A stretch of DNA of 64,000 nt, taken from assembly GCA_044892525.1 (NCBI GenBank), contig CM097888.1, positions 2,914,001 to 2,978,000 of the forward strand, in the 5' to 3' direction. This DNA comes from Schmidtea polychroa. Taxonomy: Eukaryota. The notes beneath the pieces were generated by a model that worked only from the letters and a program-made list of their open reading frames with translations, ran no database searches and had not been told where the DNA came from. This document shows, in pieces, positions 44,327-64,000 of the stretch. How positions within the stretch are numbered: position 1 is the first letter of the stretch; every line of letters starts with the position of its first letter. The position numbers and the translations under genes were made by a program.

Positions 44327-46374
44327 ACGATTTTAGAATAAATTAGATACGACCCGCGTCCATTCGTGGATACTTGACCGTCGAAAAGAAGGAAAACTTA
44401 TTCTACAATCCGGTTTTACTACGGATCTTAGTTGTTAAAACAGTTTATTTAACCAAATGCCCTCGGTTTGACGCATGTTATGAACTTTGACTATCTATTG
44501 ATCTAACTGTATGCATGAGGGACGTAATAATTGATAGGGTGTAAATATAATATTGGTGAAACAATATAATAATGCTTTAGTAGAGGGACATTATAGTATG
44601 CGACCAAACCTTGCTATATGTTATCTATTTTAATTTATTAAAAACAAATTACTATCGCTCTCAACATATTTTTGATTCGAAATTTGTTATTGGAAGTGCA
44701 CTTTTAATTCGGTAGTGAATGTGATTATCTATGTTGTCTACCATTGGTCTGAAAATATGTGATGAGTTTACATCAGCCATTACTTTAACACCCTCATGGA
44801 AAATCCCATCGGTCATAACATATCCAAATTTACGGATACTGCTGTCGACTGGTTGATTACGTTATCGACCTATTGTGAATGTCACGTGTCGCGACTACTA
44901 TGTATGCTAGTCTGATATTCTGTGCTCTCACCGCATGGATTCGTGTATGGCTACTATCTTATCTCACTCACTTGGTGTATGCCATTTTCACGGTGATTTT
45001 ATCGATCCTGCTGTCGTATGATTTTCTCTGCACAGTGATTTATTTGAGTTATGATTTATGCTACCGCCAGTTCTCATCGCGGAATTTTACCCTTATCAAC
45101 TTGTGTGAATGATCACCATCGTTTGGAAATTTATTGGATCTTTTCAGTGATCGTCGAGGGAATAATTCTACCAAATACTGGAGCATATTACTACTCTCGT
45201 CATTCTACTCGGATTTTCCTATTCAGATGTAATGCCGTCTCGATGAAACCTGTCCTTTTCTCTCAGGTTCAATAATTTGGATATATACAGTGATGACCTG
45301 GCTCTTATTGTAGAAATAAATGTTATTAATTAAATTTGGTGATATTTTACCTGTTTATAATTTTTGAAATAACTAAGTCTATAAAAACTTTCTGATTATA
45401 ATACTAGAGAGGTTTTCGTAGAATCTCGTATTTTATAGTTTCGAGTTAGTTAAAGTTTTTAGAATACTTTCGTAACCTGACATACAATCTGGACAGGTTA
45501 GATGACATTGGGTCTATGATAATGGAATTTCATACGAATTTAGTTCTACTGAGTCCGGCAAATAGACGTTGTCGCAATTAATTTGATAAAACCATGTTTC
45601 CAGATGAAGCGTACTATGAGATGTTGTTATTTTTGACGAAGTTCACTAAATCGTGGTCTGGATCTCTTTTTTCAATAGGGGTAAGACTTACGAAAACGAC
45701 TTGACGAAAGAAGAATGCGACGCCCTCAATCACTGTGCAAATCCTTGAAAATCCCTTCATTCGTATGACTATCTTTGTGAAATCATTGTCTACCGGTTAT
45801 TTTTTATCCATACCCCATTGTGATAATTTAGTCGCATCTTCAGCGATAGGACCCGTGAAGAAGCCTTCACATTTCGGCCCAATCTAGCTGCGCGATTGAA
45901 ATACTCCATGTCCACCGGCTGAGCTCCCGAAGGCACCTCATACCATGACATGGAGTATCTCAACTCCACGTTACTCGTTAAATGAAAATTCATAAAATCT
46001 TTAATTCAAATAAAATACGGACATCTGGATAAAAATATTTTATTGATTCTGAAATACTTAAATAATACAAATTCCATCAATACGTTAAAGTTATTAAAAT
46101 GGAGAATCAAATGAAGAGAGTTAACTAAAATGTTTAATCGTTAATATTTAACATTATTATTAGCTTTGCAAATACTTAAATAAATCTATAAACAAATGAA
46201 ATACCCCTTACTATTGTTAGGCTGAGTCAAAATTCAATGTTGTTCGTTCCAAATAGTTCTAATGGTGGTCCGTTGGATGTCGATTATTGTGATGAATGGT
46301 ATTTCGGTCTCTGAACTGGTTTTGAATAGTCGTGGAGTTTTCTGAATGACGGTTGCTTGGCTAGTAGTGTCGAT

Positions 46375-46453
46375 CCTATGAAATGCTCGGGGTTAACAGT
46401 AAAAACAGTAAACATTCTTTCTTACCTATGAAATGCTCGGGGTTAACAGTAAA
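46375..46453. repeat. 29-bp direct repeat in the putative 3' UTR/LTR
   Basis: CCTATGAAATGCTCGGGGTTAACAGTAAA at 46375-46403 and 46425-46453. Confidence 0.9.
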
Positions 46454-47071
46454 TTTAATGTTTTTGGTAGTTGTATATATATCAAATTCTTATTTGTGCG
46501 GACCAATCAGAGTTGAGTACCGCTTATTTCTATTAATTTAATATAATTTTCTTGTTTTTAGGTTGTTTTTTCCTTATTTTCTTTATTTTTAATATGTTTT
46601 TCTATTTATTTCCTTAATTTCCTTATTATTTCTTGAATTCCTCTTTATTTATTTGTCAACTTGTTCTATTTTAATCTTTTCTTAATTTTATTTTTTTTGT
46701 TTTAATTCTTATGTCTTAATTATTATTTTCCTTATATCTTATTCTATTTTATTTCTGATTTTATTTATTTTATTTTTATTTTTCTTAATGTTCTACTTCC
46801 CTACTTTCTTATTTTTCAACGATTAAATTTTCGACTCAGCCCAACAAATCACTCGGGGACCCATCAAAATTGCGTCCCGCAATTGCATAATTAACTTAAT
46901 TCATTCATTCAAAAAAAATATAACACGAACACGGAAAATTATACAACAATGATAAAAATTTTATTGTAAGATCAAGGTCAAAGCAAGACCAAGCAAGTAT
47001 CACTTAAGGTGATAGTTGGTACATACAATAAAAGTTTCCACATATAATAACACAAATGTTTGAATTAGAGT

Positions 47072-47740
47072 TTATGAATTGTTAACCATTGATGCTTCTG
47101 CTGGCGGCTGTTGGTTGGTTTGGGTATTGATGTTGAGATAGGTCTGACTATTAGATTTCGGCTGGATTGGTTGATTACTCGGGGTTCGAGGTCGGAATGG
47201 GGTTGGGTTAAGATTTGTCAGGGGCACTTCTTGAGGATTTTGGTTCGAGGTTACTCTTATTGATGTCGAGATTCTACATCTATTTCGAACTTCGTAAATT
47301 TTCATGAATATTGGTAGACATAGGAGGAGGGTTTCTGCGATCACCACATATATGAGATAATGGGCGTTATTGATTTCGGGAGGTATTTTTGGCTTTTCTA
47401 CCAGATTTCCAAAATTCTCTTGTTGCATTTGTTGTTCCAACTGGTCGAATTGTTGAATTTGTTCGAGGATTTGTTTGTTTATCATTTTACAAATGGGATT
47501 CTTTTTACACATTGTTTGGATGTTGTTGATGTGTGATCGGGTTGATTGAATGGTTTGGATGATATGGGTTTTTACGGTCATCGGGTATGTGCATTGACTG
47601 GATTCTTGTTTAGGTTCTTGATTTTGATTTCGGTAATCTCGTACGATTTTCGGTTGGGCGTCTATTTGTTTGCTCTCCATCAGAATCATCAATACCATCA
47701 TTGTTATCATCATCTCGCCTCGCATGATACTATTATACAT
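47072..47740 (-). CDS. Accessory type-I membrane protein (signal peptide, Gln-rich helical ectodomain with 3 Cys, TM, Pro/Gln/Asn-rich tail)
   Basis: MMITMMVLMILM signal-like segment; YLIYVVIAETLLLCLPIFM TM; probable ATG 47725. Confidence 0.75.
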   Translation of the reverse strand: MYNSIMRGEMMITMMVLMILMESKQIDAQPKIVRDYRNQNQEPKQESSQCTYPMTVKTHIIQTIQSTRSHINNIQTMCKKNPICKMINKQILEQIQQFDQLEQQMQQENFGNLVEKPKIPPEINNAHYLIYVVIAETLLLCLPIFMKIYEVRNRCRISTSIRVTSNQNPQEVPLTNLNPTPFRPRTPSNQPIQPKSNSQTYLNINTQTNQQPPAEASMVNNS

Positions 47741-47780
47741 TCATTATGTTTATTTACAATTGGTTTTAATGACCCTTAAT

Positions 47781-48533
47781 TTAATGGTTCTGATTTGGAT
47801 TATTTTCGCCGATTCTCATCAAGGTGGACTCTGCTTTAATTACCCTGTGTCTTAACTCGGGCAGCATTTCCAATTGTCGGTCTTTTTCGCGGGCTTCTCT
47901 CTTTAGATGTCTAATTTCTTTTTCCAAGCGTCTAATTTCTTCCCTTTTCTTTTCAAGGTTTCTTTTTAGCTCGATTTGTAGGAGATCTTGTTCGTTTTCT
48001 TGCAGGTAATTTTGTTGTTGATGTTTTCTTTCTATTTCTCTATATTTGCGGACCCACTTCCTCATTTCTTTACTTTCCCGTTGGTTTTCTTCTAGTTGTC
48101 GTTTTAATTTATTTATAGCTGTTTGGCGCTCCTCCGCCTCAGTTTTCCAGTAGTCTTGGATTACCTCCTTTGCTTTGAAGCTTGCCCTCTCTTTCCATAG
48201 TTCTTCCGCTATCTTTTCCCAGTTTTTCCCTCGCTTCCTTTGTTCGTGTAGCCATTCATTTTCCTCTTCCGTTTCTCTTTTTATTTCCCCCAACGCTTCG
48301 CACTCTTTCTTTAACACCTTTATCATTTTCCGGTCCTCTAGGTATTTGTTTATTAATCTCCCGTTTTCGTATTTCTCTTCCCGTAACTCGGCCTTTAGCG
48401 TTTGTGTTTCTGTTGTTTCTGCCTCAATCTCTCCCTCTTCTACGTCGCTCATAATTTCTATCATTTCCTCGATTTTCATATCTATAATATGTACAGTTAA
48501 TGGTGCGCTATAGTGCGACTTATACGTATACAT
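47781..48533 (-). CDS. Accessory coiled-coil protein
   Basis: 250-codon E/K/R-rich heptad ORF; probable ATG 48479. Confidence 0.75.
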   Translation of the reverse strand: MYTYKSHYSAPLTVHIIDMKIEEMIEIMSDVEEGEIEAETTETQTLKAELREEKYENGRLINKYLEDRKMIKVLKKECEALGEIKRETEEENEWLHEQRKRGKNWEKIAEELWKERASFKAKEVIQDYWKTEAEERQTAINKLKRQLEENQRESKEMRKWVRKYREIERKHQQQNYLQENEQDLLQIELKRNLEKKREEIRRLEKEIRHLKREAREKDRQLEMLPELRHRVIKAESTLMRIGENNPNQNH

Positions 48534-48588
48534 TGATATAAAATTTAATAGTTTGGGTTACAGTCCCTTGAATACTTTTACAATACTT

Positions 48589-48591
<3 letters not shown>

Positions 48592-48628
<37 letters not shown>
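48592..48628 (-). repeat. A37 tract on the element's sense strand
   Basis: 37 consecutive T on the plus strand between two accessory ORFs. Confidence 0.95.
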
Positions 48629-48629
<1 letters not shown>

Positions 48630-48677
48630 TTTGGGATATACGTCCCGGTTTTTAGTTTTTCATCTTTTCATCCACCC

Positions 48678-49787
48678 TTATACGAAGGTTTCCTCCTGGC
48701 CTACATAACCTTCATCACTATCGACCGCGGGATGTAACTGTATCGCAATAGGGTCGTATGGTAGGTAATATTGGGGGATTTGAGCTCTCAATTCATTAAT
48801 TTCGTCTCTTAGAGCTCGAGTGATGTTCAATTCCTCGTCGAGCAGATAGGTGAGATACCTTGTCTCTTCGTCTTTCGCCTCTATCTGTTTGTCTAGGGCC
48901 TTGATTTTCTCGTCGCCCTTCCATTTTTCAATTTCTATTTCTAAGTTTTTAATATTTTCGGTGTACATTTTCCTTTCGTTTTCTAATTTTCTGTTTTTTC
49001 CCGCTAGGACCATGTTTCTTTGTTCCAGCGATCCTTGTAATCCATTAAGGTCTCTTTTCATCTCTTCTACCTGATTTACTAATTCCACAACCCGTCCCGC
49101 TTGTTGGGTTATCATCTCTTCCATTGCGGCATTCTCGTGCTCTCTTATGTCGCACTTCATTGCCAAATGTCGCTCAAACTCCATAGCCTTTGTTTGCCAG
49201 GTTTGGCTTCGGGCGGCGACCTTTCTCAACCTTTTCAATTCTTCCTTTATTATTAAATTCTCCTCCCATTTACCTTGTTCGCTTTCATATCCGAGTCTCA
49301 TGGGCAATTCTTTCATCTCTTTTTTCATTTCTCTGTTTTGTCTTTTCCATTTTCTCGCTTCTGCCACTAAGTGCATCATTTTCCTGTCTTCTATTTGTTT
49401 TTCCGCTTCGCGCTTGGTGTTCTCATCGGTAAGTCTTTTTCTCGCTTCCTGCACTAGCTGCTTTAAGTAGTGGCTGTGTGCTTCTTGGCGGGTATTTTCT
49501 AGTGACGCCCATTTTGATGCTCTTTTGCATGCTTCTGCTTCCGCTCTTAAGTTGTGTATTAACCATTGGTATTGACTATTCTCATCTTCTCTAGTTTCTT
49601 CGATGTGATTTCGGGTGAGATTAGTTAGTTGGAACATTACTTTGTTCCATTTTTTATTATGTTCTCGGGGAATTTGTGTCTTGTTGACATTGGTTGGGGC
49701 TATCGCAGTTTCGGTTATTTTCTCTTGTGTCATCTCTAAATCATAGACATCGATTAATCTTTTTATTATGAAAAGGAATTTATTCAT
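48678..49787 (-). CDS. Accessory long coiled-coil protein
   Basis: 369-codon heptad-rich ORF; probable ATG 49733. Confidence 0.8.
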   Translation of the reverse strand: MNKFLFIIKRLIDVYDLEMTQEKITETAIAPTNVNKTQIPREHNKKWNKVMFQLTNLTRNHIEETREDENSQYQWLIHNLRAEAEACKRASKWASLENTRQEAHSHYLKQLVQEARKRLTDENTKREAEKQIEDRKMMHLVAEARKWKRQNREMKKEMKELPMRLGYESEQGKWEENLIIKEELKRLRKVAARSQTWQTKAMEFERHLAMKCDIREHENAAMEEMITQQAGRVVELVNQVEEMKRDLNGLQGSLEQRNMVLAGKNRKLENERKMYTENIKNLEIEIEKWKGDEKIKALDKQIEAKDEETRYLTYLLDEELNITRALRDEINELRAQIPQYYLPYDPIAIQLHPAVDSDEGYVGQEETFV

Positions 49788-49925
49788 TATTTACTGTTTC
49801 TTGGGAAATTTTCGCATCATTTTTGGGTTTTCGTATTTAGGGTTTTCATACTATTATTATATAATATTTTATTGGTTATATACACCGATATATACAGATT
49901 ATTATATACAACATTATTCGATTGG

Positions 49926-51314
49926 TTACTCCGTTCTACCCTTCTCCTCTTTCCTCACGGTCATCTTGATATATATGGTATCATTTCTCGCCATATCTTC
50001 TACTCTTTGTTGTGAGATGAACGTAGGTGCTCCTGTTGCTGATCCTTCTTCGTTGAGGGGCCTCTGGTAAGCTATTTGATTCCCCGTTGTTTTGAAGCTT
50101 TGCTCATGTATACTTTGGTTGTTCATCAGAGTAATATCGATTTTTGCCTGGAACGGCCATTCTAATATTTCGTCGTATTCTCCTTTACATAACAGAAAGA
50201 AAATCGAAAAGTGCGTATCCAATCCGGTTCCGTCCCCGTTGGGATATACCTTCATTTTCATTTTGTACCCATTTTTCCAAGAATGGAATGTAGGACTTGT
50301 TATTCTTGTCTCTTCTCCGGTTTTTGCTTTTCGTATTCTTTCTTTTACTCCCGTTATTTTCCATATGTAGGGTGCTGTTGGGGTTATCTCATTTAGATTT
50401 ATTTCCCGTATTTTCTGATGTAGCTCCTTGGCCTGATTATTACTGATTTCTGTTCGGTTTATTTGCATCTTTATGTTTGCTCGGGCTTCTTCGAACGCTT
50501 CCCTTTCTTCTAGTAGTTCTTTGACTAACACTTTCAACGATGTTATCTCTATCTCCATTTGTTTTACTTTCTCTTCGCTTTCTTGTAGCGCAGTCGACCA
50601 CATTTCTGCGTGAGTTGAAGCATTTTCTACTAAATGATGTGGTAACTCACCTCGGTGTAGTAGTTTCTGACAACCCCATCTACCTAGTACACATGTCATT
50701 CTTTTCTTTGCGCATTCCCTTAGATGCTGTGCCACCTTCATTATTTCCCCTTGGTTACATCCGTTTGGGCATTCCCCACTGAACTCTGCACATACTCTCT
50801 CCTCTTGGACATTGTGATGTTTGAGGGTGAGATTTATCCACGTATCTATTTCTCCACAGTGTTCACATCTTTCCAATCTCTCTTCACACTGCCTTTGATG
50901 CTCTTTTTCTTCGCTTGCTCGAATGGTTTTATGGCACCTTTCACACTGGCCAATTCTGTACATACATTCTCCCATATGTTGTACTACCTTCCATATTACT
51001 CCTTTCCATTCGCATGGGGCATTTTTGCATCCCAGGTTGGTGTTTAACATGTCTTTCACTGCGGCTTTATCCTCGTTAGTGTCTTCTAAACTCGATATTA
51101 GTGTCTCTTTACACACCGGGCACCTCTGTGGTCTATTCTTTATTGCTTCACTGATACATTCTTTACATACTCTGCATCCACATTGCGTTTGGTGAGGTTC
51201 CTTTAACAACTTTTCACATATTCCGCACATAACATGTTTGTGTATTCTGATCGTTGTAGATTTTCGGACTTGCTCGACAATCTCTCTGAACTCTTCTCTT
51301 TGTCGTTTATCCAT
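49926..51314 (-). CDS. Full-length intronless TRAF-family protein (RING, TRAF zinc fingers, coiled coil, MATH)
   Basis: RING CGICEKLLKEPHQTQCGCRVCKEC...CPVC; fingers CKNAPCEW..HMGEC, CERC..HQRQC, CEHC, CPNGC..HLREC, C..GC..H; MATH PYIWKI...SPTF...GYKMKMKVYPNGDG...HFSIFF...GEYDEILEWPF. Confidence 0.95.
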   Translation of the reverse strand: MDKRQREEFREIVEQVRKSTTIRIHKHVMCGICEKLLKEPHQTQCGCRVCKECISEAIKNRPQRCPVCKETLISSLEDTNEDKAAVKDMLNTNLGCKNAPCEWKGVIWKVVQHMGECMYRIGQCERCHKTIRASEEKEHQRQCEERLERCEHCGEIDTWINLTLKHHNVQEERVCAEFSGECPNGCNQGEIMKVAQHLRECAKKRMTCVLGRWGCQKLLHRGELPHHLVENASTHAEMWSTALQESEEKVKQMEIEITSLKVLVKELLEEREAFEEARANIKMQINRTEISNNQAKELHQKIREINLNEITPTAPYIWKITGVKERIRKAKTGEETRITSPTFHSWKNGYKMKMKVYPNGDGTGLDTHFSIFFLLCKGEYDEILEWPFQAKIDITLMNNQSIHEQSFKTTGNQIAYQRPLNEEGSATGAPTFISQQRVEDMARNDTIYIKMTVRKEEKGRTE

Positions 51315-51399
51315 TCTATAATTATATGTACAAATAGTTCTTATCGATACAGGTTCGATATTTTATTTACAATTATTTACATTTTAAGCTAGGTTTGGT

Positions 51400-51783: not shown

Positions 51784-51919
51784 CTCTTATGTAAATTTAA
51801 TTTTATTTTATGATTCCCGTTATTGTATAATATTGATACCGCGCTTATATAGAGATATAGTACTGTTATATACATAAGATATACTTACTTTTTACAATTA
51901 TATACAGTCATATTCCTTT

Positions 51920-54900
51920 CTATATACGTGAGTTTGGAGGGCGCTGAACGTTCCAGGCCTCCACCCACTGTCCTTGTTTGATATCACTTGGTCGTTTCAC
52001 TCGATGTTGGAAGTTTCTGATTCGGGTCATTTCTAGTTCTCCGCGATGTCGTTTATCTTTAATTATTTTTATTGTTCCCCCCGTTATGATTAGGAATGCC
52101 CCTGTTATTATTATCCCACTGATCCACATCATCTGCTTCACGCTTATACTCTCTGGTTTTTCCTTGTTGGTTAATGTTGATATCGCTTCTGTACTTTTCT
52201 CGTTTCCTCTTTTGCCATTTCCTTTCATCATTTCCCGTATTCTTGCTATTTCCTCGTTCATACCCTCCTTTGCCATCTTTTGTATTTTTTCCATCTCTTC
52301 CTCCGAAACATAGTTGTCCTGAGCTTCCTCACCAGTTTTCTTGTGCTTTCCTCCTTCGTTCTTTTCGTCGTGGTTTTTTCTTTTCTTTCCTCTTTTCCCC
52401 GGGTATCGTCGGCATTCTCTTTTTGATTCAATCCTCCAGATACAAACCGTGTATTCTTTCGGCGGCTGCTGCTGCGTCACATATTGATGGCATCTCTCAC
52501 CTGGTCCTAATCTTGAAATACAGACTTTGTGCTCTTTTCTAGGTTGGATCTGCGTTATTACTACTTCACCACCTTTTCCTAGGTGTACCTCTTTTCCTTT
52601 GACGTTCGTTATTCTCTTCCCGTCTCGATTTCGGTATGCTTCTTGTATTCTTACTTCTGTTATTGGTTCTGTGTCCTCATTTATCAGTACTAGTTTCTGA
52701 TACGCTCTAGACATGCATCTTCCTAGTATGCACCTTTCCTTTAAGTCCCATTCTTCCTTTAAATCCCACTGCTGCTCTTGTGCTTGCTTTCTCTTTTCTT
52801 GTTTTAGTTCATCCTCTTTGCTATCTTGATTCTCCGCTTCTTTGGTTTCTTTTATCGTTCTCGTCCCTCCCTGAGCTGTTACTAACTCTATCATGGTAAG
52901 CATAATTATCATTAATATCATATTTGTCTCTATTTCTTTGTTAGTGAAAGGTAGGCATACCCTCTGTTTTCCATTATTCGATTTTTCCTCCTCTTTGGTC
53001 TTGGTTCTCGGGCTGTTTCCCTCTCTTTTCGTATCCGAATCCTTGTTTTCTGGTTTACCCTCCTCCGGTTCTCTTTTCTCTTTATCCTCCTTTCGGTCTT
53101 TTCCGTTATTGTCATCGTGTTTATCTCCCTCGCTGTCATTTAAAATGTCGTCCTCGACATTTATATCGTTCAATAATCTGCGATATGCTGTTAGCACTCT
53201 GTTTCTTGCTAATTTTGCTTCGAATTCAAACTCTTTTCTACCCGTTGCAGCATGTCTCTTTCTATTCCATTCTTTAACTAACTCTCTCAATTGCATACGA
53301 CGATGTTTCCCAATTCGTTGTTGCTCGTTCTGATTTTGCGTGAATTTTAGGTCTTCTCTATTTAATACTATTAAAATAATTTTAGGCGTCCCCCCCTTAG
53401 TTAGGGTATTCTTTACCATCGCATTTTCTCCGTTTTCGTAGAATTCGTTTACATTTATCGCATATTTATTATTTGGTGGTACTCTCCAGGTTAATAATAA
53501 TTTCATTGCTTCTAGATTTTTCCGTACTGTATTCCATTGAAACTGAGATGTGTTTTTGCACATATTTTCAACTTCTTCTTCTGTCGCATTTTTGCAAATA
53601 AATCTGATCATTTCTAAGTTTGGCTGTATGGTTGCCCAGTCCAAGGTGGAATTTCCTTCATTGGACCTTTCGTCTAGTTTCGATCCTGATTGATGTAGGA
53701 TGTGGAGTGTTTTTGGGTGTATTTTCGTTATAGCTGCATACATCATGGCGGTTTCACCTTGTTCATTTTTCGTGTTGGTTTCCTCGCCCATCTCCCCAAG
53801 GATTCTCATGATCGTTATTGTTCTATTCTCTTTTGCAGCTAGTATTGCTTGTTGTAGGGGTGTTCGGGAATCCTTCGTTACCATCGTAAATGCTCGAGGC
53901 AAGAAGGTTTTGATTTTCCCGATATCTAAACCCGTGGTTTGATCTCTTGCGTATGTGTGTACGGCTTTTATTATTTTGGACAATATTATTTCGTCTGGCA
54001 GCTCTAGCATTTCCTCAAAGAACACTTCTTTTGCTTTGCGTATTATTGCCTCTTGATCTATACTCATTGATTTGGTTTCGATGACGTTGTTTGTGACCGT
54101 TCGGTTCGTTGTTGACTTTGATTCCCTGGATTTCTCATACCTTATTTTCGTTTTCTTTCCGTTTGGATTATTGATTCGTTCCTCTGCTGTAAGTATTTGG
54201 ATAATATCCATGTAATTCTCGCGGATGTTATTCATCGTGTCCATCATATATAACACACTTACTGTTTCCCAATATTTATGTCGTACTTGGTTAGTAAATT
54301 GGAATAGTGATTTTTCGAATGTGTCGATTCGCTTTTTTTTTAACTGTTCGTCTTTGTGATTTGTGAATTTTATCCCTCGTTCTAGTAATTGATTCGGGAT
54401 TTCGAATAAATGATGTCCTTTCATAGCTTCTCTCATCAGCGTGTTCTCTCCTCTCGTGAACGCTTCGTTTACGTTGATCATATAATCGTTTCGAATTGGA
54501 TTTCTCCATGTAATTAATATTCCGGTAATTGTCGTCAGTTTTTCTTTGATCGCTGTTAGCAATCCATCATACATGTTTCCGACTTCCCGATTGTCCTCAT
54601 ATGATAGTAGTTCCATCAATGACGTGAACGCCTCGGTGCTTCTCCCTCTGATAGCATGATGTAGAGCGTTTTTCCGCTCGTGGTCTTGTGTAGTTATTTT
54701 CGATCCGGTATCGAGTAATGCAGTTATAATGTCTTTTGTTTTGCCTCTGTTTGCGGCTATCATTAATGGTGTGTAACCTTGGTTGTTTGTTTGTTCTGTT
54801 GATCGCTTGCAGTCGTGAAATGCTTCTATTGTTTCTAGTATTTGCTCGTTGTTACCTACTTTCATGAGTTTGTGTAATGGTGTGTCTCCGTAATGATCTG

Positions 54901-57900
54901 TTATTGTAAATAATATTGGCCATTGGCTTTTGACTACTCGCAATAATGGGTGTGTCCTTTCTCTATTTGCATAGTTCTCGATCATCGTCAATAATCCTCC
55001 TAATATTTCGAAATCTAATCGATCTTTCGCCCATCCAGGTATTTTAATTTTTACCTCTTTTACAATCTTTTCCGCTTCTGATGGTTGGATACCTAATCGT
55101 CCAGTGATCGGTTCTGCGAGTTGTTGCATCATGTTCATTCGGTAGGTTTGCGAACGTGTGGTTAATGTACGGCCTTCTGGTTGACTAGTGGCTGTTTTTG
55201 GAATTGATTTGCATCGTGCCACGTTTACGTATATTGGTCTGGTAAAGGGGTTATTTACCAATTTCACTCTTACATTAGTTTCGCCTACGAATAAGATCTC
55301 ATATGGTCCTTTTCCGTTGCGTTGTAACTTTTTTGTGGTTCCTGGAATTAATTCCGGGGTTTCTATCATTACCCAATCACCTGTTTGGAACGTATGTTGC
55401 TTCACGTTTTTCTTTCGATCGTGTAAATCTTTATAACTTTCCTGGTAGAACTTGATATTTAATCCCGCAGTTTCCCAAATTTCTTGCATTCTTTCCTTGA
55501 ATTTCGTAACATAATCATCGATCTCCATATACTGCGATATCGGTGGTTGGTATTCCAGGTCCATTGGCATATTACATTCTCTTCCGTACATTAATTTGAA
55601 TGGGCTCATTTTCGTTGATGCGTGAATCGACATTCTGTACGCCATAAGACATAGGTTTATATATTCGTCCCAATCTCGTTGGTGACGGTCAACGTAGTTT
55701 GATAACATTTGTATAAGTGTTCCATTAAATCTTTCCGTCATCCCATTGGTTTGAGGGTGGTATGGAGATGTTCTTAGTTTTGCTATTTTGAAGTAATTTG
55801 TTACTTCGCTCATTATCTCACTCATAAAATTTGTTCCCTGATCGGTTAAGATTTGTTTTGGTGTTCCATATCGGCAACATATCTCTTCTACCAAAATTTT
55901 TGCGATTGTTTTAGCTTTTTGGTCTGGCATCGCGAATGCTTCTGGGAATTTCGTAAGAAAGTCTGTGATCACCAGAATGTAAACGTTTCCTTTATCTGAC
56001 TCTGGTAGTGGACCAACTACGTCCATGGATATCATTGTCATTGGTTCTATTGGTACTGGCATTGGCGTTAAAGGTGCTTTCCATTTCGATCCCGTATTCT
56101 TCCTGGTTGCACAAGTTAGACAATTTTTTACCCATTCGGTTACATCTTCCGTTAACGTAGGCCAAAAATATTTCTGTTTCATTCTTGCTAACGTCTTTTT
56201 CGATGACATATGTCCTCCCAATCTCCCATCGTGATATTGCGTTAGTAACTCTTTTCGTCGGTTTTCCGGTATACACATTAATCGTTTTTCCCCATCCATT
56301 ATCAGCAACCAATCTTTCTCTATAATATATCGGTGTCGGTGTTTATCCATATGTTCTTTTAATTTTTGGTCTTTCGCATATACATCTGTCTGTCCGGTTT
56401 TTATATAATCGATAATTTGTTTTAATTCCGCGTCCTCTTGTTGGTCCTTTCGCAATTGACAGAAATCCAAATCTTCCGCTACTATTAAGCATATGCGTTG
56501 CATTTCTGAATCCACCAAATCTGGGAAAATAAATCTTGACATACAATCGGCGTTGGCATTTGCTCTTCCCGCTTTAAATTTTATAAATGGGGAGTATTCT
56601 TGCAATTGCATGGCCCATCTCATCAGTCTACTGGACGCTTCTTTATGTTGCCCTAACCACACTAATGGTTGATGGTCTGTGGTTATGCATATCTCATGTC
56701 CCCATAGTAAATATCGGAAGTGTTTGATAGCTTGTATTATAGCCAATGCTTCTCGTTCTGTTACCGAATAGTTCTTTTCGTGCTTTTTGAATGTTCGACT
56801 GTAATACCCGATTACTCTCTCTTTTCCCTCATCGTCCAATTGTCCCAGAATCGCGCCTGCCGCGTACCCGCTTGCATCCGTTGCCAATAGAAATGGCTTC
56901 TTAAAATCTGGGTGTACGAGGATAGGTGCTTCGATTAGTTTGTCTCTCAGCGTTTCAAACGCCTCTTGTTGTTCCTTCCCCCATAAGAACGAAATGTCCT
57001 TCTTTACTAATTCCTGGATTGGTTTTGCAATTCCTGCATAATTTTTGATAAATTTGCGATAGTATCCGCATAATCCTAGAAATTCCTGAACTTGGGTGAC
57101 AGTTTTCGGTGCTGGACATGTTTTTATTTTCTCAATGTTTCTTGGATCTGGCTCCTTTCCTTTAGCTGACACTATGTGTCCTAAAAACGTGACTTTTTCC
57201 TTTGCCCAATCGCATTTTGATGGTTTGAGTTTGAGTTTCCACTGTCTTAATCTAATAAATACGTTTCGGATATCTTCTAGATGTTGTTCAAATGTCGCTG
57301 AATAGATTAGTAAATCATCAATATATACCATACATTGTTTGATTCCATGGGTGACAAAGTTCATACACCGTTGAAATGATGCTGGTGCGTTAGTCAGTCC
57401 AAATGGCATTTTCCTGAATTGATATAGATCTCGTCCCAACGTGAAAGCGGTTTTCTCTTTGTCCTCATCTTTGACTTTAATCTGCCAGTATCCACTTTTT
57501 AGATCTAAAGAAGTAAAATATGCTGCCCCTTGCAACATCAATAACATCTCATTGATGTCCGGCAATGGATAGGTATCTCTCTTGGTCACTGCGTTTAACT
57601 TCCGATAATCGATACAGAATCGTTGGGTGCCATCTTTCTTTTTCACCATGACCACTGGGAATTGCCAGGGTGAGCAACTTGGTTCGATTACTTTTGCGTC
57701 TAGCATCTTTTGTACTTCTGTTTCGGCTATTTCTTTCTGCATTTCTGCTAGCTTGTATGGTCTCAATGCAATTGGGGTTTCGTCTATGAGTGGTATTGCA
57801 TGTAAGGTAACATCACATGTACCCAAGTCTAAATCTGAGATGGCGAATATATCTTTATATTCTACCAACAATCGGTGCAATTTTTTCTTTTCGTCATTCG

Positions 57901-60900
57901 TCAACAACATACTATCTATTGTCCATAATTCATCATCTTTGATCATCTCGTTGGTCACTTTCGGTAATTCTATGTCCATCATTGGGGTCAATCTTCCCAA
58001 TTTTTCGTTCTCATAAATGATTTTGTCTTCCTCTTCGAAATTCGTGATGTTGAGCGGTATCACTCCTTCTTGGTTTATTGTGATTATTTCTCTTGCGAGT
58101 GGTAATTCTCGTCGCTTTTCAAATGACTTGCTTGGTTCAAAGATAACTTCTCCTTCCATACCCGTATCCACTTTTATCTGACAAATCATCTGTGATTTTG
58201 CTGGTACTATTATTTTTTCTGGACATCTGATGACTGAATTCATTTTGCATATTCTACCGGTTTTGTCTTTTAAACACATGGTTGTTAAGTCAATTACGAC
58301 TTCTTTTAACAATTCTGGCATCAAATCCGTTCCGATTATGCATGGTACGCTAAGTTTTGGTATTACTGCCAAATACGTTTCAATTTCGTTGTCCTGGTAT
58401 CTCAATGTAGTCCACCATCTTCCGACCACGTCCACTGTTTCTTTACTACATGCTATGATGTGAATTGTTGTTGATTCGATATCCTTCCAGTGTTTACTGG
58501 GGATTTGATTAATCGCTATCGCTGATACATTAGCTCCGGTGTCTATCATAGCATTGGTTTCTTTACCATTGATTTGAATCATAACTGTTACTGCTGGACC
58601 TCCAGGTAAACTCATCGCTGCTATTGTTCTTACGTCATCTGCTTGATCTACACTTTTGGTACGTCGTGTTGGCATATAATGCATACCGGGTTGACTCGGT
58701 AATTGCGGATACATATTTTGTGTCATGGTCAAAGCTGTTTGTGGTCCCACGATATCCGGTGGTATATAGCTTCCATTGGCGATCCAGGTGTTTGTCTTTT
58801 CCTTTTCCCAATATGGTGCCGTTTCCATTGGTTTTTCGTTTGGGTTTCTGTTTGGATAAAGACATTTATCGTTCCCGTTATCATCGTCGTCACTATCGCT
58901 GTTAGATGATTGGCTTCTAAATCGGTCCAAGAATTTTGGCTTATTCTTTTTCAATTGTCGTCTTGTTGCTTCATCGTACATTACTTTCCGGAATCGTCTG
59001 CCTACTTCCTCGTCGGTTCCTTTAATCTTTGTTAATATTTTAATCAATCGCTTTATCCGATGAATGTCTTTTGAGTGGCCATGTAATACCATGGTCTTAG
59101 CTAAAAATGGTAAGAAGCCTACTATCATTTTCCAATTAACTTTCTTTTCCCGCTTGTATATATCGAAACAAGCTAACATTTGTGTTAGTATTACTCTGAC
59201 TATCTGAATTATGAGTATGATCCCTAATATCCCGGCCATCATTTGTCCAAAAACTAAGAATCTTCCCCACATTGCTTTCATCATGTTTGACGTAGCTTGT
59301 TGAAAATGGTCTGGCGATAATAGCAGCTCGTAATTCGGGCCTGATTGATAGTTTGTGCCCCCAGTTATTGTTACCATATTAGACAAAATGGATTCTCGTC
59401 TGGCTGGGAAGAGTACGTTGAGTCGTGCTGTTTCTAGATCTTCTGGGGAATACATACCACCGTTTGACACGTCTATAGGTTTGAAATCCAGCTCTGTGGC
59501 GAGTTCTATTAATCCAAATTTTTTGGGCTCCTCGGATATGGTTTTTCCCGGTAACATCATCCATTTCCCATCGGGCCTTTCATATAAAGGTCCGTATGCA
59601 TTAGAACAGTTAAAGAGATTTGGGTAGAAACCCACTGGATTCATAATTCTAGTGACTGGTTGGACGAATCGATTTTGTCCTTTATAACGGATTTCTAATT
59701 CATTTGCACATCTCTTTTCGGGTAGTATGGATTTTTCTGGCATTCGTGCATACGTCTTGGTACACTGGTATGTGTACATCACTTCTCCTACCATTCTACC
59801 AAAGTGTCCATCTGGTAATGGGAGTGATGGCATCGTGTTATCTGGGTGCGTTATCGCAATAGCTAGCTTTGTTTTCAATATTTCTTTATTCAATGAACAA
59901 TCGTTTTGTATTAGATCGTAATATACTTTTTGCAAGGTCGTTTGTCCGCGATGAAATAGAAAATCCATTTTATTATTTGCATATAAGTATAGTTTTACGT
60001 CCTCCGTTGCTATCTTTCCCACTGCTCTATCGATTATTTGTCTCGACATATAGATACCTGCGTAATTGGTTTTATATACTATACTGTCACATTTGGTGGT
60101 TTCTTTCTCTTTGATAAATCTCATACCTAGATCTGGATCGTCTGTGATTAATGCTGTTGGTGTCTTCTGCGTTGAAAGTCTCTTTTCTCTGGGAGATGGT
60201 GGCATTGGTTTTCCATTTCGCATTCTCACTCTGTCGTTTCCATCCTCGTCGTTCTCGTTCTCATATATTTCTCCTTTTACTTCATTGAACAAAGCACTTT
60301 TTAACAGTTGGAGTCGGCATTTTTGGGTATTAGCTTCATAGATTATAGTTGATACTCCTGTCCTGCATACGTTTTCTGTAGCTCTACACGTTGGGTTGGT
60401 CTTCATTTGGTAATTATTTGCGTCAAATTGCGCTTCGTATTCTTTTAATTCGACCGTGTAAGACTCGATCACTACAACTCCCGATATTACCTCGCCTCGG
60501 ATCGTATACGTACCTCCGTTACATGACCCATCTGATGATTTTACTTTTCCGGATACGTAAACACTTTCGGTTTTAATCATTCCAGTTTGTCCGTGAATTG
60601 TCACTCCGTTATGCATTTTTAGCGCTCCGGTTCTAAATAGCTCTTTACAATCCTCTCGTTGTATTGATACGATTTCTTTATCCAGACCGGGTAGTATAAG
60701 AGTCGAATACGAATATTGTCCACAGTAATATGCGAGTACCTTTTTTGATACTACGCATTCCCTTGCTTGCGTTCTGATGAAATCTGATTCTTGATATACA
60801 TGGTAAGTAACTTTTGTTCTCACGATGTCCAATTTGTTGGGTGAGGCTTGTCTGCATTCTTCTATGTCTCTCAATGAGTATTTATCTCTCATTATCATGT

Positions 60901-63900
60901 TATCACAATCGTAGATGGTGAAACCTGTTGCTCCACTTGTGCACAACATCCATATCATCATAGTCATCATTAACGAATTTATTGATGCTTTTCTGCTTGC
61001 GGGATCTTTCATCGGTAGTTCCCATTCTAGTTCATTTAACAGTTTTTTCAATCTAACTTGCATCGACCTTTCTTGCTCATTTTTCCGTGGCGCTTGTATC
61101 AGTCTTTTCCATCCTCCTGCACGAATAATGTGTGGTTCAATAGTATTCTCTATGATTGAAACGGTCATTTCTACATGATTTGCAAACTGTTTATTTGGTA
61201 TTTTCCTCGCAGCTAGTCCCATCAAATTATACATCAAATAAGTGATTACCACTAGGTGATGCTCGTCATCATTTGCATTTGTCGTGAGCTGCTCAATCAC
61301 TCTCTTTGTTTCGTCCCAATCCGTTTTGGTGGTTTTCGTTTTCTCTTTGATTAACTTTGGGATTATCCCCGAAATGGTGTGCCATAATTGTCTAGCTTCC
61401 GTACTGGCTACTTTCCGTTGCCACAGACGTCTAAGTTGTGGGTTTGTTATTATTAACATATCTTTTAACAATTCTCGTATCCATTTTTCTCCTCTTTCGA
61501 TCGTTGGTTGGGCTTCCTTTAGATCCCATACTATTTTATCCAATTTTTCTAATCGAACTTGCCCTTGTTCTTGCTTTAATTGTTCTTTGGTTTTGAACTC
61601 AGACTTTTCTCCTTGTTTCTTGGGTCTTCCTTTTGCCCGTTTTTCCATCATCGTTCCTGCTTCTCTGGTATTTTCGTAATTCGGATTTCTTTCGTTATCC
61701 GTTCTGGGTAATGAGCTATCGTTATTTCTTAGCCACTCATTCCATTCGTCTATTATTTTGTCGGTTTGACTTTCTGGTGTTACTTTCGTTGGTTCTCTTT
61801 GCTTCTGGAATTGTTCATCCGTTTCGGTTTCCGTAGTATTGTCGATGATTTCTTCGATGTTCAGTTTCGTTGGTTGTTGATAACTCGTTGATGGCTGGTT
61901 ATTAGTCCACATTTCGGCTCCTGTCGGCCATCTCACTAATAGCGGTGATCTTTCTCCTGGTTCATCGTCACTATCTTCCAGGATTATCTCTTCAACTTCT
62001 TCAGTTTCATTAGATTTACTTGGTGCTTTGTTCGGACTTGGAGTACTCAAACTGCCTTTTGTTGGTTTAATAATTTTACTTTTCCTTTTTAACGGTTTTC
62101 CCAACGTTTCTGCCATTGTTAATACATTTGTCTCTTCCAATCTCATGGGGGTTATCCCGACGTCTGCATTATCGTCTAGTGATTTTCCGAACAGTTGCAG
62201 ATGGAATGGAGTTTCATATGCTAATTTCTTTTTTAATTCTCTAATTTTTGTTGTTGGATGCACCTCTAGTTCCTCGATGCTCTTGTCTGGATACTTGATT
62301 CGGATGTGATACCTCTCCTGGGTGTCTTGTGCCCATTCCTGATTTCTCCATTTTCGAATAATTTGTTCTAGCTGTTCTGGATACCATTCATTATATTGCC
62401 GGTATTCCTCTATTGCCTTTGCCATTCCTCTCAGATTGTGGATGTCCTCTGATGTCTTTAAGATGATGTTAGCCAACGCTACTACTTGGCGTCTTTGATT
62501 TTTCGCTCCCATTGCTAAGATATCGCCTAATTGTTTATATCTTTCTTTCTCTTCTCGTTCTCTTGCTTCCGTCGCTTCCTCGCCGTCCATATCAGCATAT
62601 TCACGTTCCTTTTTCCTCATTGCATGAATATGTCTCGCTTCATTTTCGCTTTCTGATGTGACATCCGTCTCGCCTTCGTCATCTGATGTCTGTTCCCTTG
62701 CTTCCTCTTCATATTTTGGAGGTTCCTCTTCTTCTTCCTCCGATTCACTTTCTGTCTCACCAATGTCTGTTTCCACGAAGGTTCCTTTCCGGATTTCCCA
62801 TTCCTTACTTTCTGCATTCCACACTCTTTCCCATGGGGTTCGTCTGCAGGATCTGGTGCTTAATTTCGTGATTTTTCCTTGTAGTTCTTTTTCTTTTAAC
62901 CATTGTTGGTGGATTTTAATTATTTCCGTAGATTTTTGATATAACGTTTTCATCCGGTCTCGTATTTCTTTTTGATAGGTTACATCTCTTGTTCGAAATT
63001 CATCCATTGGTACTATCCTGATTATCTGGTGATTGTCCCACATACCCATTTCGCTTAACGAGGTGTCGTCCTCCGCTCGTAATATTATCTTATCGTACAT
63101 CATGACTACATCATCCACCATACCATCACTACTTTCGCTACGTACCTTTTCCGTTATCTCTTGGTTTATTTTTGATACCAAGTCATCTACTGTACTCTGA
63201 TTGCTCATTTTTATTCGTCGTTTTTCTTCGTTCGGTAACCATATGGTTATTTCCAACCTCTGTGGCTGGGTTTCTTTTAACCTTCCATATTTGTGGATCA
63301 AATTTATGGTTCTCCAATCACTCATTCGGAGCATTTCTGTATCTCGCAACCGGCTCATTAGTTCGTACATGGCTGGGGCTCGTCTGGTGATGAGTAAATC
63401 CCAGTTGTCTTCTACTTGTTCTTGAATTTGTTTGATCAGCTTATCCAGGTTTCGTCTCAGAGTACATTGTTTTATTTGTTCTAATTTCAATTTGATATTA
63501 AAATCATATTCTGCCTTGGCATCTTTAGCCCAATCGTAAAGGTTGGCTGGTTGTTTTTCTTTATGCAACTTCAGTATTTGCGTTTCCCCTGGCCATATTA
63601 GTGCATCTACTAAGTGCATATCTGGTTTGATCGGTTCTCCTTGGTATTGATACAGATATTCTTTCTTTCTCGAACTTCCCAAATGCTCTCGTATCCAATC
63701 GAAAAGTTCGTCGGTGACTGTATTTTTTATCCACATTCTTTCAAGTCCTCTACTCGTTCCGATTTTTATTACATACCGCGTGGTATCGGCCTGCTTCATT
63801 TTTTCCATATAATTTTTTATAATTGATTTTTCCTCGTTTGGTATTAAATCTTTCTCGTTTCTTTCCAATTTCATCACTTTTTGCACGAATCGCCTGAATG

Positions 63901-64000
63901 GTATTACGTCAATGAACTCTTGGTTCCTCACTACTACTGGGAGTATTTCCGCTACTTGTTTTATCGCTTCCTCCTTCCCTTTTCTCAACTTTATTTCGAT
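51920..64000 (-). CDS. Giant retroelement polyprotein (>4,020 aa, 5'-truncated): UBLx3, Bcl-2-like, signal, Env (chuvirus/gB-type), TM, PR, RT, RH, IN, ANK, membrane protein
   Basis: One uninterrupted frame. The listed 'start' at 63988 is TTG and the frame stays open to 64000. Confidence 0.95.
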   Translation of the reverse strand: MEIKLRKGKEEAIKQVAEILPVVVRNQEFIDVIPFRRFVQKVMKLERNEKDLIPNEEKSIIKNYMEKMKQADTTRYVIKIGTSRGLERMWIKNTVTDELFDWIREHLGSSRKKEYLYQYQGEPIKPDMHLVDALIWPGETQILKLHKEKQPANLYDWAKDAKAEYDFNIKLKLEQIKQCTLRRNLDKLIKQIQEQVEDNWDLLITRRAPAMYELMSRLRDTEMLRMSDWRTINLIHKYGRLKETQPQRLEITIWLPNEEKRRIKMSNQSTVDDLVSKINQEITEKVRSESSDGMVDDVVMMYDKIILRAEDDTSLSEMGMWDNHQIIRIVPMDEFRTRDVTYQKEIRDRMKTLYQKSTEIIKIHQQWLKEKELQGKITKLSTRSCRRTPWERVWNAESKEWEIRKGTFVETDIGETESESEEEEEEPPKYEEEAREQTSDDEGETDVTSESENEARHIHAMRKKEREYADMDGEEATEAREREEKERYKQLGDILAMGAKNQRRQVVALANIILKTSEDIHNLRGMAKAIEEYRQYNEWYPEQLEQIIRKWRNQEWAQDTQERYHIRIKYPDKSIEELEVHPTTKIRELKKKLAYETPFHLQLFGKSLDDNADVGITPMRLEETNVLTMAETLGKPLKRKSKIIKPTKGSLSTPSPNKAPSKSNETEEVEEIILEDSDDEPGERSPLLVRWPTGAEMWTNNQPSTSYQQPTKLNIEEIIDNTTETETDEQFQKQREPTKVTPESQTDKIIDEWNEWLRNNDSSLPRTDNERNPNYENTREAGTMMEKRAKGRPKKQGEKSEFKTKEQLKQEQGQVRLEKLDKIVWDLKEAQPTIERGEKWIRELLKDMLIITNPQLRRLWQRKVASTEARQLWHTISGIIPKLIKEKTKTTKTDWDETKRVIEQLTTNANDDEHHLVVITYLMYNLMGLAARKIPNKQFANHVEMTVSIIENTIEPHIIRAGGWKRLIQAPRKNEQERSMQVRLKKLLNELEWELPMKDPASRKASINSLMMTMMIWMLCTSGATGFTIYDCDNMIMRDKYSLRDIEECRQASPNKLDIVRTKVTYHVYQESDFIRTQARECVVSKKVLAYYCGQYSYSTLILPGLDKEIVSIQREDCKELFRTGALKMHNGVTIHGQTGMIKTESVYVSGKVKSSDGSCNGGTYTIRGEVISGVVVIESYTVELKEYEAQFDANNYQMKTNPTCRATENVCRTGVSTIIYEANTQKCRLQLLKSALFNEVKGEIYENENDEDGNDRVRMRNGKPMPPSPREKRLSTQKTPTALITDDPDLGMRFIKEKETTKCDSIVYKTNYAGIYMSRQIIDRAVGKIATEDVKLYLYANNKMDFLFHRGQTTLQKVYYDLIQNDCSLNKEILKTKLAIAITHPDNTMPSLPLPDGHFGRMVGEVMYTYQCTKTYARMPEKSILPEKRCANELEIRYKGQNRFVQPVTRIMNPVGFYPNLFNCSNAYGPLYERPDGKWMMLPGKTISEEPKKFGLIELATELDFKPIDVSNGGMYSPEDLETARLNVLFPARRESILSNMVTITGGTNYQSGPNYELLLSPDHFQQATSNMMKAMWGRFLVFGQMMAGILGIILIIQIVRVILTQMLACFDIYKREKKVNWKMIVGFLPFLAKTMVLHGHSKDIHRIKRLIKILTKIKGTDEEVGRRFRKVMYDEATRRQLKKNKPKFLDRFRSQSSNSDSDDDDNGNDKCLYPNRNPNEKPMETAPYWEKEKTNTWIANGSYIPPDIVGPQTALTMTQNMYPQLPSQPGMHYMPTRRTKSVDQADDVRTIAAMSLPGGPAVTVMIQINGKETNAMIDTGANVSAIAINQIPSKHWKDIESTTIHIIACSKETVDVVGRWWTTLRYQDNEIETYLAVIPKLSVPCIIGTDLMPELLKEVVIDLTTMCLKDKTGRICKMNSVIRCPEKIIVPAKSQMICQIKVDTGMEGEVIFEPSKSFEKRRELPLAREIITINQEGVIPLNITNFEEEDKIIYENEKLGRLTPMMDIELPKVTNEMIKDDELWTIDSMLLTNDEKKKLHRLLVEYKDIFAISDLDLGTCDVTLHAIPLIDETPIALRPYKLAEMQKEIAETEVQKMLDAKVIEPSCSPWQFPVVMVKKKDGTQRFCIDYRKLNAVTKRDTYPLPDINEMLLMLQGAAYFTSLDLKSGYWQIKVKDEDKEKTAFTLGRDLYQFRKMPFGLTNAPASFQRCMNFVTHGIKQCMVYIDDLLIYSATFEQHLEDIRNVFIRLRQWKLKLKPSKCDWAKEKVTFLGHIVSAKGKEPDPRNIEKIKTCPAPKTVTQVQEFLGLCGYYRKFIKNYAGIAKPIQELVKKDISFLWGKEQQEAFETLRDKLIEAPILVHPDFKKPFLLATDASGYAAGAILGQLDDEGKERVIGYYSRTFKKHEKNYSVTEREALAIIQAIKHFRYLLWGHEICITTDHQPLVWLGQHKEASSRLMRWAMQLQEYSPFIKFKAGRANANADCMSRFIFPDLVDSEMQRICLIVAEDLDFCQLRKDQQEDAELKQIIDYIKTGQTDVYAKDQKLKEHMDKHRHRYIIEKDWLLIMDGEKRLMCIPENRRKELLTQYHDGRLGGHMSSKKTLARMKQKYFWPTLTEDVTEWVKNCLTCATRKNTGSKWKAPLTPMPVPIEPMTMISMDVVGPLPESDKGNVYILVITDFLTKFPEAFAMPDQKAKTIAKILVEEICCRYGTPKQILTDQGTNFMSEIMSEVTNYFKIAKLRTSPYHPQTNGMTERFNGTLIQMLSNYVDRHQRDWDEYINLCLMAYRMSIHASTKMSPFKLMYGRECNMPMDLEYQPPISQYMEIDDYVTKFKERMQEIWETAGLNIKFYQESYKDLHDRKKNVKQHTFQTGDWVMIETPELIPGTTKKLQRNGKGPYEILFVGETNVRVKLVNNPFTRPIYVNVARCKSIPKTATSQPEGRTLTTRSQTYRMNMMQQLAEPITGRLGIQPSEAEKIVKEVKIKIPGWAKDRLDFEILGGLLTMIENYANRERTHPLLRVVKSQWPILFTITDHYGDTPLHKLMKVGNNEQILETIEAFHDCKRSTEQTNNQGYTPLMIAANRGKTKDIITALLDTGSKITTQDHERKNALHHAIRGRSTEAFTSLMELLSYEDNREVGNMYDGLLTAIKEKLTTITGILITWRNPIRNDYMINVNEAFTRGENTLMREAMKGHHLFEIPNQLLERGIKFTNHKDEQLKKKRIDTFEKSLFQFTNQVRHKYWETVSVLYMMDTMNNIRENYMDIIQILTAEERINNPNGKKTKIRYEKSRESKSTTNRTVTNNVIETKSMSIDQEAIIRKAKEVFFEEMLELPDEIILSKIIKAVHTYARDQTTGLDIGKIKTFLPRAFTMVTKDSRTPLQQAILAAKENRTITIMRILGEMGEETNTKNEQGETAMMYAAITKIHPKTLHILHQSGSKLDERSNEGNSTLDWATIQPNLEMIRFICKNATEEEVENMCKNTSQFQWNTVRKNLEAMKLLLTWRVPPNNKYAINVNEFYENGENAMVKNTLTKGGTPKIILIVLNREDLKFTQNQNEQQRIGKHRRMQLRELVKEWNRKRHAATGRKEFEFEAKLARNRVLTAYRRLLNDINVEDDILNDSEGDKHDDNNGKDRKEDKEKREPEEGKPENKDSDTKREGNSPRTKTKEEEKSNNGKQRVCLPFTNKEIETNMILMIIMLTMIELVTAQGGTRTIKETKEAENQDSKEDELKQEKRKQAQEQQWDLKEEWDLKERCILGRCMSRAYQKLVLINEDTEPITEVRIQEAYRNRDGKRITNVKGKEVHLGKGGEVVITQIQPRKEHKVCISRLGPGERCHQYVTQQQPPKEYTVCIWRIESKRECRRYPGKRGKKRKNHDEKNEGGKHKKTGEEAQDNYVSEEEMEKIQKMAKEGMNEEIARIREMMKGNGKRGNEKSTEAISTLTNKEKPESISVKQMMWISGIIITGAFLIITGGTIKIIKDKRHRGELEMTRIRNFQHRVKRPSDIKQGQWVEAWNVQRPPNSRI
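52065..52925 (-). other. C-terminal membrane module of the polyprotein (internal signal-like segment, Cys-containing ectodomain, TM)
   Basis: NMILMIIMLTMIELVTAQG (~52870-52925); six Cys in CILGRC...KVC...RCH...VCIW...REC; MMWISGIIITGAFLIITGGTI TM (~52070-52132). Confidence 0.6.
53370..54905 (-). other. Two ankyrin-repeat modules after the integrase
   Basis: YGDTPLH, QGYTPLMIAA, RKNALHHA; then SRTPLQQA, QGETAMMYAA, EGNSTLDWA. Confidence 0.85.
55210..56290 (-). other. Integrase domain
   Basis: HDGRLGGH...CLTC zinc finger; D (56021-56023, SMDVVG), D (55841-55843, TDQG), E (55733-55735, TERF), giving DD35E; GPYEI motif. Confidence 0.97.
56535..57900 (-). other. Reverse transcriptase and RNase H domains
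   Basis: KKDGTQRFCIDYRKLN, YPLP, LDLKSGYWQI, MPFGLTNAP, YIDD (57314-57325), FLGH; RH TDAS (D 56876-56878), EREALA, TDH, NADCMSR. Confidence 0.98.
58315..58590 (-). other. Retropepsin aspartic protease
   Basis: AMIDTGANVS (DTG 58535-58543) and CIIGTDLM. Confidence 0.95.
59165..60975 (-). other. Envelope glycoprotein, chuvirus G / herpes gB-type class III fusogen-like
   Basis: Signal SLMMTMMIWMLCTSGATG followed by FTIYDC. The ~550-aa ectodomain has 14 Cys in the pattern seen in chuviral-type G (YDC, EC, C..YCG, C, GSCxG, C, C...). Furin site REKR at 60179-60190; TM FLVFGQMMAGILGIILIIQIV. Confidence 0.75.
61085..61560 (-). other. Bcl-2-like helical domain
   Basis: IENTIEPHIIRAGGWKRLI resembles BH2 (cf. 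Bcl-xL LEPWIQENGGWDTF). A hydrophobic alpha5-like segment HLVVITYLMYNL sits at BH1 spacing; NWGR is not conserved. Confidence 0.55.
62110..63790 (-). other. Three ubiquitin-like (beta-grasp) domains
   Basis: About 63560-63790 (YVIKI...YQYQGEPIKPDMHL), 63005-63260 (LEITIWLPNEEKRRIKMSNQSTVDDL...TSLSEMGM) and 62110-62315 (YHIRIKYPDKSIEELEVHPTTKIRELKKKL...LFGKSLDD) follow the UBL hydrophobic pattern. Confidence 0.65.

Follow-up and report, generated by a model that had tools for sequence, protein, structure and literature searches.

A young Burro-like Ty3/gypsy element of Schmidtea polychroa with a fusion-type envelope ahead of the protease in one polyprotein frame

The 64,000-nucleotide stretch of Schmidtea polychroa DNA analyzed here (the window) contains a retroelement that is almost certainly of the Burro type of Ty3/gypsy, with Gag, a PF24664 envelope (Env), protease (PR), reverse transcriptase (RT), RNase H (RH) and integrase (IN) in a single frame. 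The overall explanation that we favor, and hold to be rather probable, is a one-frame element of this type whose polyprotein would pass the membrane four times and be processed by two cleavage activities.

Architecture of the element

The features are listed below, those of the polyprotein in the order of translation.

51920..64000, minus: polyprotein frame, 4,026 stop-free codons in the window, open at the window end
62201..63277, minus: weak ubiquitin-fold matches at aa 242-288 and 566-600 (E 0.008 and 0.021)
61091..61498, minus: BCL-2-like domain with a GGW motif at its end (Pfam Bcl-2, E 0.039)
60923..60994, minus: first signal-like segment (signal 1), aa ~1003-1026 (hydropathy, conserved pattern)
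59273..60922, minus: Env ectodomain, PF24664 (gB/chuvirus-type), 14 cysteines (E 1.1e-71)
59186..59272, minus: Env transmembrane (TM) region, conserved (Kyte-Doolittle 19-mer 2.53)
59081..59134, minus: H2, second hydrophobic segment after the Env TM, conserved, net basic on both sides
58601..59080, minus: linker, 18-23% identical to its counterparts in two related families; predicted to be the cytosolic tail of Env
58310..58600, minus: aspartic protease, DTG at aa 1820 (RVP, E 3.6e-10)
57161..57883, minus: reverse transcriptase, YIDD (RVT_1, E 3.8e-36)
56591..56983, minus: RNase H (RT_RNaseH, E 1.5e-39)
55196..56272, minus: integrase with HHCC, D-D35-E and an SH3-like end (Pfam and residue check)
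53591..54883, minus: ankyrin repeats (Ank_2, E 1.5e-20)
52871..52933, minus: second signal-like segment (signal 2), aa 3690-3710 (hydropathy)
52133..52870, minus: predicted ectodomain 2, aa 3711-3956, matching no family
52061..52132, minus: second TM segment, aa 3957-3980, followed by basic residues (hydropathy)
49926..51362, minus: TRAF-like ORF with RING, zinc fingers, coiled coil and MATH (MATH E 2.3e-27, RING E 9e-5)
47781..49790, minus: two ORFs of 258 and 370 aa, coiled-coil-like (weak coiled-coil-type matches only)
47072..47740, minus: 222-aa ORF, predicted to encode a small type I membrane protein (signal-like segment, TM-like segment)
46847..47075, minus: expected polypurine tract region, no purine run of at least 8, TGATT abutting the LTR
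43004..46846, minus: 3' LTR of 3,843 bp, identical to the 5' LTR, with its ends and a 4-bp target duplication
43538..44332, minus: 264-codon ORF within the LTR, hydrophobic N-terminus, no family
L011:5104-5586, outside the window: leader RING ORF (C3HC4_3, E 3.4e-11)
L011:5904-5921, outside the window: primer-binding site (PBS), 18/18 to host tRNA-Pro(TGG) plus CCA
L011:5929-9771, outside the window: 5' LTR, pairing with the 3' LTR at 100%

The element is 29,768 bp long and is bounded by terminal repeats of 3,843 bp that are 100% identical over 3,843 bp. Each LTR has TG...CA ends (TGTTGGG...CCCAACA), and a 4-bp target-site duplication (TSD) lies on both sides. The TG...CA LTRs with a short TSD, the PR-RT-RH-IN order with YxDD and D-D35-E motifs and the tRNA-type PBS are all present, and by these features the element is a Ty3/gypsy retroelement (Metaviridae).

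Upstream of the window the polyprotein frame extends for 706 more codons (L011:1001-2773), giving a whole frame of 4,732 codons and a protein of 4,617 aa counted from the first Met. The N-terminus beyond the window is Gag (Retrotrans_gag, E 2.4e-10) with three CCHC knuckles (zf-CCHC, E 4.8e-10). Further along the frame, Pfam returned Monjiviricetes_fusion (PF24664), RVP, RVT_1, RT_RNaseH, Integrase_H2C2 and rve in this order, with ankyrin repeats after IN. The first-pass annotation had described one stop-free frame with the order Env, PR, RT, RH and IN, which the 4,026 codons and the Pfam order bear out, and all the catalytic residues that it called intact are in place: D1820 in PR, D2165/D2228/D2229 in RT, D2375/E2417/D2442 in RNase H, and HHCC plus D2660/D2720/E2756 in IN. 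Its motifs were right and its numbering slightly off, with DTG at aa 1820 instead of 1816 and YIDD at 2226 instead of 2222; likewise, the signal and the TM exist within other limits (aa ~1003-1026 for the signal, aa 1587-1605 for the most hydrophobic 19-mer of the Env TM). It had overlooked the ankyrin repeats after IN and the second signal/TM pair. The first Met, Gag, PBS and 5' LTR, which it had expected upstream, were all found beyond the window. In the spacer of >100 aa between PR and RT, where Burro-like elements carry a dUTPase-like part, no Pfam dUTPase match was found.

The ubiquitin-fold match ahead of Env is stronger in family 2, a related family of the same genome (E 1.4e-4). Pfam Bcl-2 matches two related families with E values of 0.0015 and 1.8e-5, respectively, and all three families stay below the curated cut-off. 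The 60 PDB matches listed for the BCL-2-like part are nearly all to chains named as BCL-2-family members, at E values of 0.012-0.078, and its single-sequence model (pLDDT 47), too poor to inform, gave no Foldseek match at E<=0.001. The GGW motif ahead of the signal is retained in 15 of 20 hand-picked loci; among the 11 database relatives with a readable upstream part, only 4 have a GGW-type motif before Env.

The PBS is separated from the 5' LTR by a gap of 7 nt. Host tRNA-Pro(TGG) genes stand in tandem with a 475-bp period (G000:C1:130901009-130952345), and a genome search with the tRNA-Pro(TGG) pattern gave 2,164 matches, compared to 0 with the control; these tandem genes are the likely source of the primer. 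At the other end, no purine run of at least 8 occurs in the 229 nt upstream of the 3' LTR, yet the LTR junction is invariant, being identical in 7/7 other copies located. This combination implies that the plus-strand primer may be non-canonical. The sequence TGATT is found both before the 3' LTR (window 46847-46870) and after the 5' LTR (L011:5904-5928).

The TRAF-like ORF carried by the element is full-length. The 222-aa ORF at 47072..47740 matched no Pfam family at E<0.05. Both this ORF and that at 43538-44332 have signal-like starts and may add to the secreted or membrane products of the element. The sense strand is A-rich across the internal region 47000-64000, with 38-43% A in the polyprotein frame.

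Genomic copies and published relatives

The family is very young, with dozens of intact frames. Fifty-five of the 95 env copies scored, taken best first from 2,547 candidates in ranked lists that favor intact copies, lie within the full 4,732-codon frame. Seven of ten copies sampled down this list have both LTRs at the expected offsets, with 0-2 mismatches and 4-bp TSDs; in the remaining three, no LTR was found at these offsets. The Env motif pattern has 1,409 matches in the genome versus 11 for the reversed control. Identical LTRs, intact copies and domain order support the first-pass reading that the element is young, Burro-like and of the Ty3/gypsy type, with its fusion-type Env in frame before the protease, and by these marks it is complete, recently inserted and many-copy. 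The LTRs of other copies (L050-L063) measure 3,837-4,165 bp and are about 95-99% identical to those of the studied copy, a variation that contrasts with the junction region at 99-100% identity.

Family 2 shares about 30% identity with the studied family over Env-PR and 48% over RT-IN. Its Env and protease lie in one frame at 25 of 30 loci, with a frame of 3,334 codons that starts with Gag. Among 20 loci hand-picked for diversity out of the first 100 listed, the path from Env to the protease motif is open in 7, open without a motif found in 2, and broken in 11 by a stop between the Env start and the protease.

The first-pass annotation had put forward the env-before-protease layout as not known to have been described, a claim overturned by the sections of the literature compared here. 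Planarian Burro elements with an in-frame env between gag and pol were reported in 2019 (PMC6431247), and GAG-ENV-POL elements with a gB-type Env and predicted signal and TM are described from flatworms, nematodes and bryozoans, six of them from Schmidtea (PMC13524379). A metavirus reported by Sacco 2022, as cited in PMC13524379, resembles the studied element in having an RNA-virus-type glycoprotein ahead of pol. In the published excerpts, Burro/GYPSM1 elements share with the present one a length of about 30 kb, multi-kb LTRs, one ORF of 4.6-5.1 thousand aa, a Gag with three CCHC knuckles, an env in frame between the BCL2-like part and PR, and ubiquitin-like, BCL2-like (both weak here), ankyrin and MATH/TRAF parts. 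By this domain content the element is a member of the Burro-like GAG-ENV-POL group. It is not Burro1 itself, from which it is set apart by the published description: Burro1 has 4,873 aa compared to 4,617 aa, and Burro1/GYPSM1 carry MATH/TRAF inside ORF1, whereas here it is a separate downstream ORF, as well as a BIR motif, of which there is none in the scanned ORFs of the studied element.

The elements Smed_errantivirus_1-6 of PMC13524379, as far as its main text and table describe them, also have the gag-env-pol order, a gB-type ectodomain between signal and TM, and many near-identical copies. By eye, the studied Env comes nearest to that of Smed_errantivirus_5, at about half identity, and is the same as none of the six; the Env of family 2 is nearly identical to that of Smed_errantivirus_2 over the segment compared by eye. 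The table of that paper gives no tRNA for the six, compared to tRNA-Pro for the studied element, and its main text has 0 matches for 'polyprotein', 'in-frame' and 'ankyrin'. The first-pass premise of a separate env ORF does not hold throughout Belpaoviridae: by the published section consulted, Atlas virus of this family encodes one Gag-Pol-Env polyprotein of 2,828 residues (PMC9094657). It thus resembles the studied element in joining Gag, Pol and Env in one chain, but its Env is class II and comes last, leaving the Gag-Pol fusion intact.

Conservation and predicted fold of the envelope

All of the cysteines (14/14) are common to three families. Env is 37-38% identical between families versus 22% for the protease, and synonymous sites are saturated, which argues that Env is under purifying selection. 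The pattern of signal, YDC, TM and H2 is kept across lineages at 34-90% Env identity. A furin-type REKR site is present in the studied family only and is absent from two other families.

A full HMMER search with Env revealed 977 relatives; word-indexed protein searches, a search of viral contigs and PDB sequence searches with Env gave no match, blanks that carry no weight in view of the 977. Scanning of 12 long relatives found four single chains that combine Env with RT and IN, and five more with Env followed by protease. The stand-alone relatives of 600-800 aa resemble viral glycoproteins, with a signal in 77/100 and a TM in 65/100. Two aspartic-protease motifs follow Env in P0001, P0003, P0004 and P0015. 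Another Env-Pol polyprotein of the same group, P0007, is filed as a hypothetical protein of Flavobacteriaceae and probably stems from animal DNA that was binned with a metagenome.

Published analyses of related elements by HHpred and AlphaFold speak for the explanation favored here. Our AlphaFold model of the studied Env, built from 12 sequences, has a mean pLDDT of 55.8 and a pTM of 0.41, being confident only in its strand-rich first half; in this partly confident model, long strands are followed by a long helix. The homologue P0022 (E 2e-37) falls together with PF24664 and with clusters of herpes gB and rhabdovirus G, reaching a TM score of 0.52 to a gB cluster. Through this homologue, and thus indirectly, Env is a likely class III fusogen, a class with a five-domain gB/G fold.

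Membrane segments and topology of the polyprotein

In the studied copy, signal 1 is only moderately hydrophobic: its Kyte-Doolittle 19-mer scores 1.27, where the two related families compared reach 1.99 and 2.43. Small residues at -3/-1 are the rule for signal-peptidase sites, and by eye they precede the Env start in five of six lineages. From its placement, signal 1 could also be a tail anchor of the BCL-2-like domain. H2 scores 1.31, like signal 1, and hydropathy alone cannot separate the two in the studied copy. At 1.3-1.4, H2 falls well short of the Env TM (2.4-2.6); it has a proline in its middle, is flanked by basic residues, and is likely to be surface-lying or re-entrant.

Signal 2, which has neutral flanking charges on both sides, lies at the same position in family 2 and in P0001, P0007 and P0014. 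The family 2 polyprotein also ends in a second signal/TM pair, as do three of the four database chains extending into IN; the remaining one stops inside IN. The C-terminal ectodomains of the studied family, family 2 and the relatives do not align to one another; the position of the module is therefore kept while its sequence changes. Judged from its location, this second signal-plus-membrane module would tether Pol at both ends.

We propose that the polyprotein is threaded four times through the ER membrane, a topology that the hydrophobic segments make fairly probable. Processing by the host signal peptidase and the protease of the element is likely and fits the conserved hydrophobic pattern. 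The cytosolic Gag-ubiquitin-like-BCL-2-like part would retain signal 1 as its membrane anchor, Env would enter the lumen and halt at its own TM, the PR-RT-RH-IN-ankyrin part would form a cytosolic loop from the Env TM to signal 2, and a fast-changing second glycoprotein would make up the C-terminus. Gag and Pol would be produced at 1:1 and both be kept on the membrane of the Env trimer until the protease releases them, so that membrane co-tethering would replace Gag-Pol fusion as the route of Pol to the capsid. That Pol packaging depends on this tether is possible, with some doubt, and the first-pass suggestion that Pol could be delivered to budding sites through Env stands as a hypothesis.

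Flavivirus and alphavirus polyproteins have internal signals and are cut by signal peptidase and a viral protease. The studied polyprotein would work in a similar way, but these are unrelated positive-strand RNA viruses and the likeness confers no membership. By analogy, and as a tentative extension that we consider rather unlikely, Burro-type elements might be enveloped and express a flavivirus-like polyprotein composed of an anchored Gag-BCL-2, a class III fusogen, a double-tethered Pol loop and a hypervariable receptor-binding glycoprotein, with packaging by tethering. If this were true, receptor binding, a function missing from gB-type fusogens, would fall to the second glycoprotein.

A competing explanation accepts the single frame and has Pol enter capsids without Env, either from a spliced gag-pol RNA or after early release by the protease followed by RNA or Gag binding. 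Such routes are established means by which LTR elements adjust the ratio of Gag to Pol, and foamy viruses package Pol through RNA or Gag binding. The poorly conserved Env-PR linker resembles a cleavable spacer, and a donor-like GTRAG lies at 62760 with acceptor-like sites at 59100 and 58365, but no site has the strict acceptor pattern. Moreover, Env and PR stay fused in frame throughout the lineages compared and in database relatives, a constraint that splicing by itself would not impose. The contigs of four runs contain no interpretable splice joint and are uninformative either way on expression and splicing. For BURRO1, RNA levels are reported to increase upon smedwi-2 RNAi (PMC8532177). We regard Env-independent entry of Pol as unlikely, and the tethered polyprotein as the preferred reading.

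An intracellular role of Env, in budding into internal membranes or nuclear entry with no cell-to-cell spread, is improbable. It would agree with the non-conserved furin-type site and with the statement in PMC13524379, in the sections covered, that it is not known how gB-type elements enter cells; against it stand the complete cysteine set, the strong conservation of the whole ectodomain, and the signal and TM in most stand-alone relatives (77 and 65 of 100). Most likely, Env acts as a class III fusogen in spread between cells. Less probable than the intracellular role is a reading of H2 as a genuine second crossing of the membrane, which would leave the downstream part luminal and Pol made otherwise. 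Its conservation, and a hydropathy equal to that of signal 1 in the studied copy, speak for such a crossing; against it are a score far below that of the Env TM (1.3-1.4 versus 2.4-2.6), the proline at its center, the flanking basic residues, and the fact that RT and IN would not function in the lumen. A misassembled junction or one-off nested insertion between env and pol is excluded by the copy data, and no point in its support was found. Among 604 candidate copies, the TM-linker-PR stretch is spanned whole at 99-100% in 40/40 scored matches, which lie on four large contigs and all cross the junction, and the same in-frame junction recurs in the 25/30 family 2 loci and in distant database proteins.

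The layout itself is already published; the second membrane module, the signal-1 anchor, the tRNA-Pro primer and the absent purine tract keep some interest, none of these four appearing in the Burro section of PMC6431247 or the sections of PMC13524379 compared. A literature search found no prior account of Burro topology, although Grohme 2018, Jurka 2007 and Sacco 2022 may contain one, and Sacco 2022 may also treat polyprotein processing. The tethered polyprotein offers a testable answer to the question of how Pol can be packaged with Env standing between it and Gag. For gB-type entry without the herpesvirus gD/gH/gL, as raised in the sections of PMC13524379 compared, the second membrane module is a candidate factor.

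A short R-Y-x-L-R motif occurs at the start of the family 2 frame and after the integrase (L070, L071, P0001 and P0007); it may be akin to the chromatin-binding motif of foamy-virus Gag.
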